DNA from: Arcobacter sp.
GTDB lineage: Bacteria; Campylobacterota; Campylobacteria; Campylobacterales; Arcobacteraceae
Length of the DNA: 15,440 nucleotides
Reading direction: 5' to 3'
Assembly (NCBI GenBank): GCA_965662175.1
Contig: CBFIGT010000054.1
Location: 1 to 15,440, forward strand
The position numbers and the translations under genes were made by a program. Positions 2,621 to 5,379 of this stretch are shown piece after piece. The notes under the pieces are model-generated. The model searched no databases. It saw only the letters and a program-made list of their open reading frames with translations, and was not told where the DNA came from. The first letter of the stretch is position 1, and every line of letters starts with the position of its first letter.

Positions 2621-3802
2621 ATGGATGCAAACATCTCTTATGTAATTGATACGTTTTTTGCAATCTTTGCAATGACGTTAATTATTTTTATGGTGCCTGG
2701 ATTTGCCATGCTAGAAGCTGGATTGGTTAGAACAAAAAATGTAAGTGCGGTTTTAATGGTAAACACTATGATTTATGCAGTGGCTTCACTTGCATTTTTA
2801 CTAGTTGGATACTCTATTGCTTTTGGTGATTTTGGAAGTGATAGTATGAGTAAATGGGCTGCGTTTTTATTTCAAATGGCATTTGTTGGTAAGGTAATTA
2901 ATATTATGTCAGGTGGAGTTAGTGAAAGAGCAAAAGTAATACCATTAGCATTTTTTACTATTATTATGGGAGCTTTAATATATCCTACAGTTGTAAACTG
3001 GTCTTGGGGAAATGATATGTTAGATGGTACAATGTTTGATTTAACAATGTATGATTTAGCAGGTTCTACTGTAATCCATAGTACAGGTGGATGGGCGCTT
3101 TTAGCTGCGATTTTAATAATAGGTGCTAGAAAAGGAAGATATGTTGATGGTGGAGTTAGAGTAATTCCTGCTTCAAATATTCCTTTAGTTACACTTGGTG
3201 CATTTTTATTATGGATTGGATGGTTTGGATTTAATGGTGGTTCGGTTGGTTCAATCTCTTCAAAAGAGAGTGCTGATGCTGTTGCTTTAACTATTATGAA
3301 TACAAATACAGCAGGACTTGCAGGTGCAATTATTGTTGGTGCATTTATGTATTTAAGATATAAAAGACTTGATATTACTATGGTACTAAATGGAGCTTTA
3401 GGTGGATTAGTTGCAATTACAGCAGGACCTGATTTATACAATATTTATACTCCAATTTTAATTGGTGCAATTGGTGGTGCTTTAGTAATTTTTGGAGTAT
3501 CATTTTTTGATAAATTAAGACTTGATGATCCAGTTGGAGCCCTGTCAGTTCACTTATTAAATGGTATTTGGGGAACATTAGCTGTTGGAATATTTGCAAG
3601 TAATGGTACAGATATTACATTTTTAGGTCAATTAAAAGGTGTAGTGGTTGTAGGTGTATTTGCATTTGTAAGTTCATTTATTGTTTTATTCATAATAAAT
3701 AAAATAGTTCCATTAAGAGCAGATAGAGATGAAGAGATGCAAGGATTAGATGTAGAAGAGTGTGGTTTAGAAGCATACCCAGAGTTTAAACGAGCATTCT
3801 AA
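2621..3802 (+). CDS. amtB: Ammonium transporter (Amt family), copy 2, divergent
   Basis: Motifs PGFAMLEAG, FLFQMAF, DLAGSTVIH, GWFGFNGGS and DDPVGALSVH; shares the C-terminal GLEAYPEFKRA with copy 1. Confidence 0.95.
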   Translation: MDANISYVIDTFFAIFAMTLIIFMVPGFAMLEAGLVRTKNVSAVLMVNTMIYAVASLAFLLVGYSIAFGDFGSDSMSKWAAFLFQMAFVGKVINIMSGGVSERAKVIPLAFFTIIMGALIYPTVVNWSWGNDMLDGTMFDLTMYDLAGSTVIHSTGGWALLAAILIIGARKGRYVDGGVRVIPASNIPLVTLGAFLLWIGWFGFNGGSVGSISSKESADAVALTIMNTNTAGLAGAIIVGAFMYLRYKRLDITMVLNGALGGLVAITAGPDLYNIYTPILIGAIGGALVIFGVSFFDKLRLDDPVGALSVHLLNGIWGTLAVGIFASNGTDITFLGQLKGVVVVGVFAFVSSFIVLFIINKIVPLRADRDEEMQGLDVEECGLEAYPEFKRAF

Positions 3803-3944
3803 AAATAGTTTTATAGCAGTGCTTTTTTGACAATCTCTGCGTTGAAAATTTAAAATCACATAGTCACATACTCAAGTATGCTCCTATGAGATTTTAAATT
3901 TCCGCCTTGACCTTGTCAAAAAATCCCAACTCTAAAACTATTTT
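3802..3944. repeat. 143-bp imperfect palindromic element (ERIC/IRU-like, possible MITE)
   Basis: Nested complementary arms: 3802-3813/3933-3944, 3823-3833/3913-3923, 3846-3857/3890-3901, 3859-3863/3884-3888 and 3867-3872/3875-3880. The segments CTGCGTTG, AGTCAC..GCTCCT and CCGCCTTG resemble the ERIC consensus as I recall it. Confidence 0.75.
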
Positions 3945-3981
3945 GTCCGTTAATTAAAAGATAAATAAAAATTTAAAAAAA

Positions 3982-3993
3982 TTTAGTTAAAAT
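3982..3993 (+). promoter_or_regulatory. Putative sigma70 promoter of the PII-pyrC unit
   Basis: TTTAGTTAAAAT (TTTAGn plus -10 TAAAAT) lies 25 nt upstream of the TTG start. The same architecture occurs at 7549-7583. Confidence 0.5.
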
Positions 3994-4003
3994 ATACAAA
4001 TAA

Positions 4004-4356
<353 letters not shown>

Positions 4357-4357
<1 letters not shown>

Positions 4358-5379
4358 TGAGTAAAGAAATAGTTTTAAACTCACCACTTGATATGCATCT
4401 TCATCTAAGAGATGGTGAGATGCTAAAGTTAGTAGGTCCTTTAACTTCAAAAACTTTTGCAGGTGCTCTTATTATGCCTAATCTTGTACCTCCTGTTACA
4501 ACAAAAGAGGCTTTATTATCTTATAAACAAAGAATAAAAGAGGCTTGTAAAGATGATATTTTTGAACCTTATTTAACACTATTTTTTCAAGAATATTCAA
4601 GGGAGTTTTTGGCTAGTATTAAAGATGAAATAATAGGTATAAAACTTTATCCAGCTGGAATTACAACTAACTCTGAAAATGGAGTTGCTGCAATAGATGC
4701 TGAAACTTTAAGACCAACTTTAGAAGCTATGAGTGATTTAGGTATTCCTTTATGTGTTCATGGTGAAACAAATGGTTTTGTTATGGATAGGGAAAAAGAG
4801 TTTATGCCAATCTATGAAGGTTTAGCAAAAACTTTTCCAAAGCTTAAAATAATTATGGAGCATATTACAACAAAAGATGCTGTTGATTTACTTCCTAAAT
4901 ATGATAATTTATATGCAACTATTACTTTACATCATTTAATTATTACTTTAGATGATGTTGCAGGTGGAATGTTACAACCACATCTTTTTTGTAAACCTAT
5001 TGCAAAAAGATATGAAGATAGGGATGCTTTATTAAAAGCAGCACTTGAAGCTAATCCAAAAGTAATGTTTGGAAGTGATAGTGCTCCCCATCCAAAACAC
5101 AAAAAAGAGTCTTGTGGTTGTGCTGCTGGAGTTTTTACATCACCAATTGCACTACAAGTTTTAGCTGAATTATTTGAAAAGCATGAAAAGCTTGATAATT
5201 TAAATGCATTTTTAAGTTTAAATGCTCAGAAAATCTATGATTTTAAACCTTTAGTTAAAGATATTACTTTAATAAAAGAGGAGTGTTTAGTTCCAAATAT
5301 TTATGAAGGATTTGGAGAGAATGTAGTTCCAATGTATAATAATCAAAAATTATCTTGGAGTTTAAAAGAGGGGAATTAA
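4357..5379 (+). CDS. pyrC: Dihydroorotase (homodimeric, E. coli type)
   Basis: Motifs DMHLHLRDG, IMPNLVPP, KLYPAGITTNS, HGE, MEHITT, FCKPIAK and GSDSAPH. The GTG start overlaps the PII stop codon. Confidence 0.96.

Follow-up and report, generated by a model that had tools for sequence, protein, structure and literature searches.

Why does a long inverted repeat begin inside the stop codon of an ammonium transporter gene, to which family does it belong, and on which strand is its fold maintained? The repeat lies on contig CBFIGT010000054.1 of Arcobacter sp. (assembly GCA_965662175.1; genome of 2.6 Mb, 27.8% GC, 249 contigs), and the window analysed here is this whole 15.4-kb contig. It is the longest inverted repeat of the window, a 143-bp rod that starts at the last base of the TAA codon of amt2, and we assign it with high confidence to the ERIC (enterobacterial repetitive intergenic consensus) superfamily of dispersed repeats. 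Its core is homologous to that of E. coli ERIC and is spread over many phyla; its stems covary around fixed loops, and its copies are anchored on stop codons in one orientation, with a strand bias. The selected strand is probably the purine-rich one, opposite the mRNA. Two points are new here: the link to canonical ERIC, made with a held-out model, and the antisense-strand fold, tested against a control.

The initial annotation of this DNA had correctly described the sequence, the coordinates, the loop words and the rod at the amt2 stop codon. The rod is real on the plus strand, with a folding energy of -41.7 kcal/mol (z -8.89) that 0/200 shuffles match. However, the better and conserved fold is on the minus strand and not on the mRNA strand: the folding energy there is -55.2 kcal/mol (z -9.16; again 0/200 shuffles fold as well), which is 13.5 kcal/mol stronger. 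On this strand, the family core (Table 1) has a 5-bp tip whose middle pair shows compensating change, a tandem G·A pair below it and, in 23/24 copies, a G·U(T) wobble. The loop words hardly vary and compose, on the minus strand, a two-fold symmetric AAGGC/AACGC loop, CTGCGTTG being one half of a pseudo-symmetric arrangement of AA bulge, short helix and AA bulge; this symmetry is read from the sequence. K-turn and bulge-helix-bulge motifs were considered, but their loop sizes do not fit, and an Rfam scan matched nothing at the element.

Kinship with ERIC and distribution of copies

Known since 1990-91, ERIC is classified as an enteric MITE (miniature inverted-repeat transposable element). Reviews confine it to enterobacteria and Vibrionaceae (literature set including PMC2229807, PMC3184786, PMC10969869 and PMC12288879). 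The ERIC words that the initial annotation had given agree with the published primers ERIC1R and ERIC2 (PMC3896396), and the cores of these primers match the tip of the element (AGTCAC.TAC...GTA.GCTCCT), which 0/200,000 shuffles do. Whole-primer matches are 12/22 and 11/22, low because the stems differ.

The relationship was then scored with R2, a model built from 41 copies that are neither enteric nor Campylobacterota; it comprises no more than 5 base pairs, and a pattern of the shared words served to choose its training copies. R2 gives 51 bits to the window (E 9e-10) and 41 and 37 bits to copies from Rahnella and Providencia. The latter came from a distant blastn search against plasmids, which returned only short tip matches in these two genera, and these matches turned out to lie in elements of ERIC type. 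Run on one E. coli chromosome, R2 retained 10 matches from 20 candidates; 10/10 carry ERIC primer sites, 3/10 with 22/22 for both primers. R1, a covariance model built from 33 Campylobacterota copies, scores ERIC-type copies poorly and barely detects them, which argues against a strict ERIC assignment. The element is multicopy and intergenic and forms a long stem-loop, as ERICs do, but it has no TA ends and no 7-bp terminal inverted repeat (TIR), measures 143 bp and not 127, and has ends that are not conserved among copies. Given the limits of R2, the poor R1 scores and the absent TA ends, we file it as ERIC superfamily and not as ERIC in the strict sense.

The wider family of structured repeats that the initial annotation had proposed is also recovered. 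A GTDB pattern scan returned at least 120 loci, 80 of them titled. Among the matches listed, the titled loci belong to Enterobacterales, other Gammaproteobacteria, Bacteroidota, Bacillota, Desulfobacterota, Nitrospirota, Nitrospinota, Coriobacteriia, Myxococcota and Arcobacteraceae, and relatives occur in at least 8 phyla; by a rough estimate, about a dozen matches of the collection are due to chance. A scan for 5-nt loops gave 1 candidate locus. Phage pattern scans gave 25 matches, of which 8 looked real; the other 17 are one high-GC sequence family without a rod, and were treated as chance. Among the listed results of literature searches, no paper brings these repeats of different phyla together; lineage-specific members may already be recorded in catalogues of RNA motifs, in MITE entries of ISfinder or in supplements of genome papers.

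Within its own genome, plain blastn and nhmmer found only this copy and one weak match. R1 identified four loci, one after amt2 and the others after genes that, from their protein ends, we take to be secF, carA and guaB. Relatives of the element were found by blastn in 19/41 genomes and by R1 in 22/41 (0-43 matches per genome), and R1 matched 28/121 genomes across the phylum. The amt2 site is filled in 5/25 alleles, from five genera, and is empty in 7/7 same-genus genomes. The element is thus multicopy, as the initial annotation had expected, it is present or absent at orthologous sites rather than fixed at one site in all relatives, and it does match ERIC. Searches of sequencing runs, made on contigs only, recovered at most 0.35 of the element's words and brought no further evidence.

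Copies at the same host gene have a mean identity of 0.77, against 0.66 at different genes (107 copies, 43 gene groups). The copies are therefore old and mostly inherited in place, and the amt2 copy is probably an old passenger. The same host gene can hold different variants in different genomes, and copies after nrdB in relatives resemble those in GTDB records titled Halarcobacter. One variant (97% identity; four loci) follows metH in some genomes, whereas another genome has it about 1 kb further along, behind an EamA-like gene, which suggests local movement or replacement. Head-to-tail tandems of up to four copies occur at eight loci; one of these, in a record titled Vagococcus, consists of enteric-type ERIC tandems and is possibly contamination. 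At ten loci, copies adjoin tRNA or rRNA genes, in either orientation. In genome G000, the empty alleles after fabI, lepA, purH, htpG, efp, guaA and mtnN have short near-perfect AT-rich hairpins overlapping the stop codon. Insertion into terminator loops was considered for the short stop-codon hairpins of several empty alleles and rejected, their stems being unlike the outer stems of filled alleles.

Stems, strand and position of the fold

Conserved loops with replaced stems, as seen by the initial annotation in a single copy, hold for the family: the loop words are fixed and the stems covary on both strands. On the plus strand, 22/32 pairs are changed on both sides (33 copies) and on the minus strand 32/41 (24 copies); 0/500 shuffles reach either value, in a shuffle test that related sequences can inflate. 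When the registers are slid, pairing falls from 90% to 31-51%. Across phyla, among the matches listed, the variable tip pair is Watson-Crick in 122/124 copies, the outer arm places its own partner in the top 5% in 111/122, and the middle arm prefers its own partner in 77/124.

Of 131 Campylobacterota copies, 118 have their centre no more than 90 nt from an upstream stop codon, with the pyrimidine strand as the coding one; the stem starts -20 to +10 nt from the stop codon in 101 of these 118. Other phyla lean the same way, by 18 vs 1 among the matches listed from GTDB (80 loci; 59 unassigned, 2 with both sides) and by 32 vs 4 in metagenomes (79 loci; 40 unassigned, 3 with both sides).

Isolated mismatches indicate which strand the fold is kept on. 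Counted on the coding strand, A·C outnumbers G·T by 196:36 in Campylobacterota, 33:8 in enterics, 73:22 in other phyla and 49:21 at untitled loci, whereas 226 ordinary 3' hairpins of this genome, used as a control, give 15:34. Since the A·C excess on the coding strand is reversed in ordinary hairpins, the fold appears to be kept on the antisense strand. C-to-T change linked to transcription or replication would push the ratio in the opposite direction. In addition, the consensus fold of one alignment favours the purine strand (-38.0 vs -16.7 kcal/mol).

The gene order in the window is amt1-glnK-amt2-glnK-pyrC, with further genes that look flagellar by sequence. The two tandem amt-glnK pairs occupy positions 786-2420 and 2621-4357; amt1 is without the element in this genome and carries it in two others (G010 and G023). 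The candidate sigma-70-like match on the plus strand (Table 1) could read into glnK. A mirror match, also 11/12, lies at 3919-3891 on the minus strand; both face inward and are built by the inverted arms. An 11/12 match on each strand is found in 1/131 copies.

Table 1 Features of the amt2 locus (positions in the window)
Feature	Coordinates	Strand	Remarks
amt2, ammonium transporter, host gene	2621..3802	+	stop codon abuts the element
ERIC-superfamily rod, 143 bp	3802..3944	-	conserved fold on the minus (purine-rich) strand
Sigma-70-like match, 11/12, pointing to glnK	3827..3856	+	specific to this copy; candidate only
Left outer arm, locus-specific, covarying	3802..3833		begins in the stop codon; holds a T-run kept in Arcobacter-type copies
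Conserved loop word CTGCGTTG	3837..3844		minus strand reads AACGCAG
Left middle arm	3846..3861		varies freely, covaries
Family core GTCAC-N-TAC / loop / GTA-N-GCTC	3863..3883
Apical hairpin CATAC-TCAA-GTATG	3867..3880
Right middle arm	3885..3901
Conserved loop word CCGCCTTG	3902..3909		minus strand reads CAAGGCG
Right outer arm	3912..3944
glnK/glnB (P-II), next gene, same direction	4019..4357	+

A proposed folded single strand and its rivals

How could such an element come to sit on gene ends? Our best explanation, to which we give as a whole a probability of roughly 0.55, is that the amt2 locus carries an old copy of a non-coding, non-autonomous ERIC-superfamily repeat seated on a stop codon, with its fold kept on the purine-rich strand opposite the mRNA. 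The element would move as a folded single strand, more likely DNA, and its symmetric purine loops would be bound by a putative, probably dimeric enzyme supplied in trans; gene ends would be targeted, or else be the sole insertions that survive. That the strand is DNA rather than RNA, and that a protein reads the loops, as the initial annotation had proposed, we infer. Mobility is supported by the partial occupancy of the amt2 site, by different variants at one host gene, and by the Nitrospirales genomes, which hold at least 40 copies, 82-96% identical to the query and with covarying ends, whose occupancy of ybaB- and leuC-like sites is patchy. No plasmid matched the Nitrospirales element, and at four loci a smaller palindromic repeat is inserted in one arm. 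Movement as single-stranded DNA (ssDNA) is itself held tentatively, at a little under even odds; it is proposed by analogy with integron attC sites, whose active strand has the same G·T and purine skew (PMC5027507, PMC5371416). A side effect on mRNA would be compatible with this explanation.

Several observations weigh against it. At amt2 (25 alleles) and at the Nitrospirales sites no clean pre-insertion allele or junction was found, the empty alleles being too diverged to read a target duplication. No enzyme gene is linked to the element in neighbour scans and targeted locus checks, so that copies flanking a transposase or another enzyme gene, which the initial annotation had proposed to look for, did not turn up. 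The scans covered 89/140 GTDB proteins (enteric ones mostly left out), 137/138 metagenome proteins and 63/113 Campylobacterota proteins. Among the 89 GTDB neighbours there is 1 transposase, beside the element and not around it; among the 137 metagenome neighbours no family occurs more than 3 times, and the top 25 families include no transposase. Cores lie near 1/20 Y1, 0/15 reverse-transcriptase (RT), 4/30 tyrosine-recombinase and 0/8 IS5/IS1182 loci. As to the strand, the central 3-bp GCG/CGC helix varies in the opposite way (12 G·U vs 1 A·C on the coding strand), and where copies adjoin tRNA, rRNA or ribosomal-protein genes, it is in some cases the purine strand that is transcribed. In most copies the purine strand serves as leading-strand template (18/21 and 20/23 copies, with the terminus taken at half length), but orientation follows the gene and not the replichore in 5 of 12 exceptions (those that parsed); orientation therefore does not point to replication ssDNA, and on these exceptions we ruled out a replication-driven orientation. 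Finally, RNA and DNA alike can form wobble and G·A pairs, and the data therefore do not tell one from the other.

Within the family, Y1 genes co-occur with the element in 8/11 genomes with at least 17 copies vs 3/11 with at most 5, a weak signal among kin that are not independent, which was not used. One 4.6-Mb Nitrospirales chromosome has 35 RT and 17 Y1-transposase matches. Downstream of the Campylobacterota copies, 18/63 proteins match defence, toxin-antitoxin or mobile families and 31/63 match nothing. As these 63 were selected out of 113, obvious housekeeping and duplicate neighbours having been set aside, and as empty alleles in this genome also have, by eye, accessory-looking neighbours, a link with defence genes is unproven. 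TGTGAC words, sometimes doubled, lie just downstream of 9/131 copies, ahead of accessory genes, and are a possible regulator site.

The strongest alternative, although we consider it unlikely, treats the copies as ordinary MITEs. DDE transposases particular to each lineage (IS5/IS1182- or IS630-like) would recognise the ends and move the element as double-stranded DNA; the shared core would then be a passenger, and position and orientation would result from selection after insertion. The ends of copies in Nitrospirales and Acidaminobacter resemble the terminal repeats of DUF772-type insertion sequence (IS) elements in the same genomes, presumably of the IS5/IS1182 type. ERIC itself is listed among the MITEs in a review table, which gives it 7-bp TIRs, a target duplication and TA ends (PMC2229807). 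However, the ends covary from copy to copy rather than being fixed, Arcobacter-type copies have neither conserved termini nor any IS resemblance, and the IS elements themselves are without the core (best E 0.12). A DDE route explains neither the one-strand wobble bias nor the loops conserved across phyla.

The purine strand could instead act as RNA, which we judge quite unlikely. It would be an antisense or independently transcribed rod that binds a conserved host protein, or it would spread by way of an RNA copy that is reverse-transcribed at gene ends. Motifs typical of RNA, namely tandem G·A pairs and a conserved G·U, are found in the copies; moreover, orientation tracks transcription, and the Rfam antisense RNA family V_AS5 gives an ERIC purine strand a match of E 0.0054, although its score falls far short of the cut-off. 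Against this, V_AS5 finds nothing in this genome, the element is not linked to RT genes (0/15 loci; genome G152 has 42 matches but no RT match), and promoter-like sites of at least 10/12 are present in 3/131 copies vs about 5% in shuffles. Such sites being no commoner in copies than in shuffles, a family-wide promoter is ruled out.

It is very improbable that the element is a domesticated regulator in the 3' untranslated region, working at the mRNA level as terminator, ribosome road-block or RNase E/III site to set the ratio of amt2 to glnK. In its favour, the mRNA strand does fold (z -8.9), the same genes keep their copies, and ERICs of Yersinia are reported to destabilise the mRNA upstream of them in an orientation-dependent way (PMC2229807, section 10). 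Against it, the fold is selected on the other strand, 7/7 same-genus genomes are without the element at amt2, there is no terminator signal, and the host genes (43 gene groups, 107 copies) share no common pathway. The initial annotation had the element replace a terminator of amt2. This reading is not supported, since 0 terminator-like sites were found on either strand of 3600-4500, glnK runs in the same direction and it is for the antisense strand that the fold is tuned; the GC stem and U-tract with an mRNA-strand G·U bias that mark an intrinsic terminator are not seen, the bias being reversed.

The ends are replaceable, while loops and strand stay conserved across many phyla, and the search for a mobilising protein hence points away from the terminal repeats; one review reports no ERIC motifs beyond the terminal repeats (PMC2229807). 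The purine strand is a defined bait, the complementary strand and loop mutants are defined negative controls, and ERIC mobility becomes testable.

Comparison with attC, REP, V_AS5 and ERIC

Like an integron attC site, the element lies directly after a gene and keeps its structure rather than its sequence. Its antisense strand carries the G·T wobbles and the purines, matching the bottom-strand skew of attC, and in most copies this strand is the leading-strand template (PMC5027507, PMC5371416). Unlike attC, RYYYAAC/GTTRRRY boxes are found in 0/131 copies in either orientation, and copies form no cassette arrays: one element match lies in the 15 kb beside the sole integron-type integrase neighbour found. 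An integron-type integrase gene is convergent on purH where purH carries the element (two loci, G006), and on guaA without the element in G000 (contig C130).

The element is palindromic and extragenic like REP/REPIN sequences, for which recognition of an ssDNA hairpin would follow the same logic. These sequences, moved by RAYT (TnpA-REP), often supply or abut stop codons (PMC3733652), a further likeness. In contrast, GTAG precedes the tip in 12/131 copies of the element, the commonest word being GAAG (24), and copies flank none of the clear Campylobacterota Y1 loci (0/12) and 1/20 of the Nitrospirales ones. The Vibrio antisense RNA V_AS5 (RF02818) weakly matches the purine strand of an ERIC (L111:1976-2099), at 32 bits against a cut-off of 96, and matches neither this genome nor the window. 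From this weak match, V_AS5 may be an ERIC transcript.

Compared with ERIC (IRU, RU-1; 127 bp; Enterobacterales and Vibrionaceae), the element differs, beyond its termini and length, in AT-rich arms unrelated in sequence and in copies that are about 66% identical between loci. The two have in common the core words, in the same order and spacing, a similar length, a rod fold and an intergenic position near stop codons, and enteric copies show the same strand bias. A speculative and rather unlikely extension of these parallels is that ERIC is one branch of pan-bacterial, structure-defined ssDNA sites, attC-like. A possibly host-encoded enzyme would read these sites and place them at core-gene stop codons, and there they would mark or seed hot spots of defence-gene turnover.
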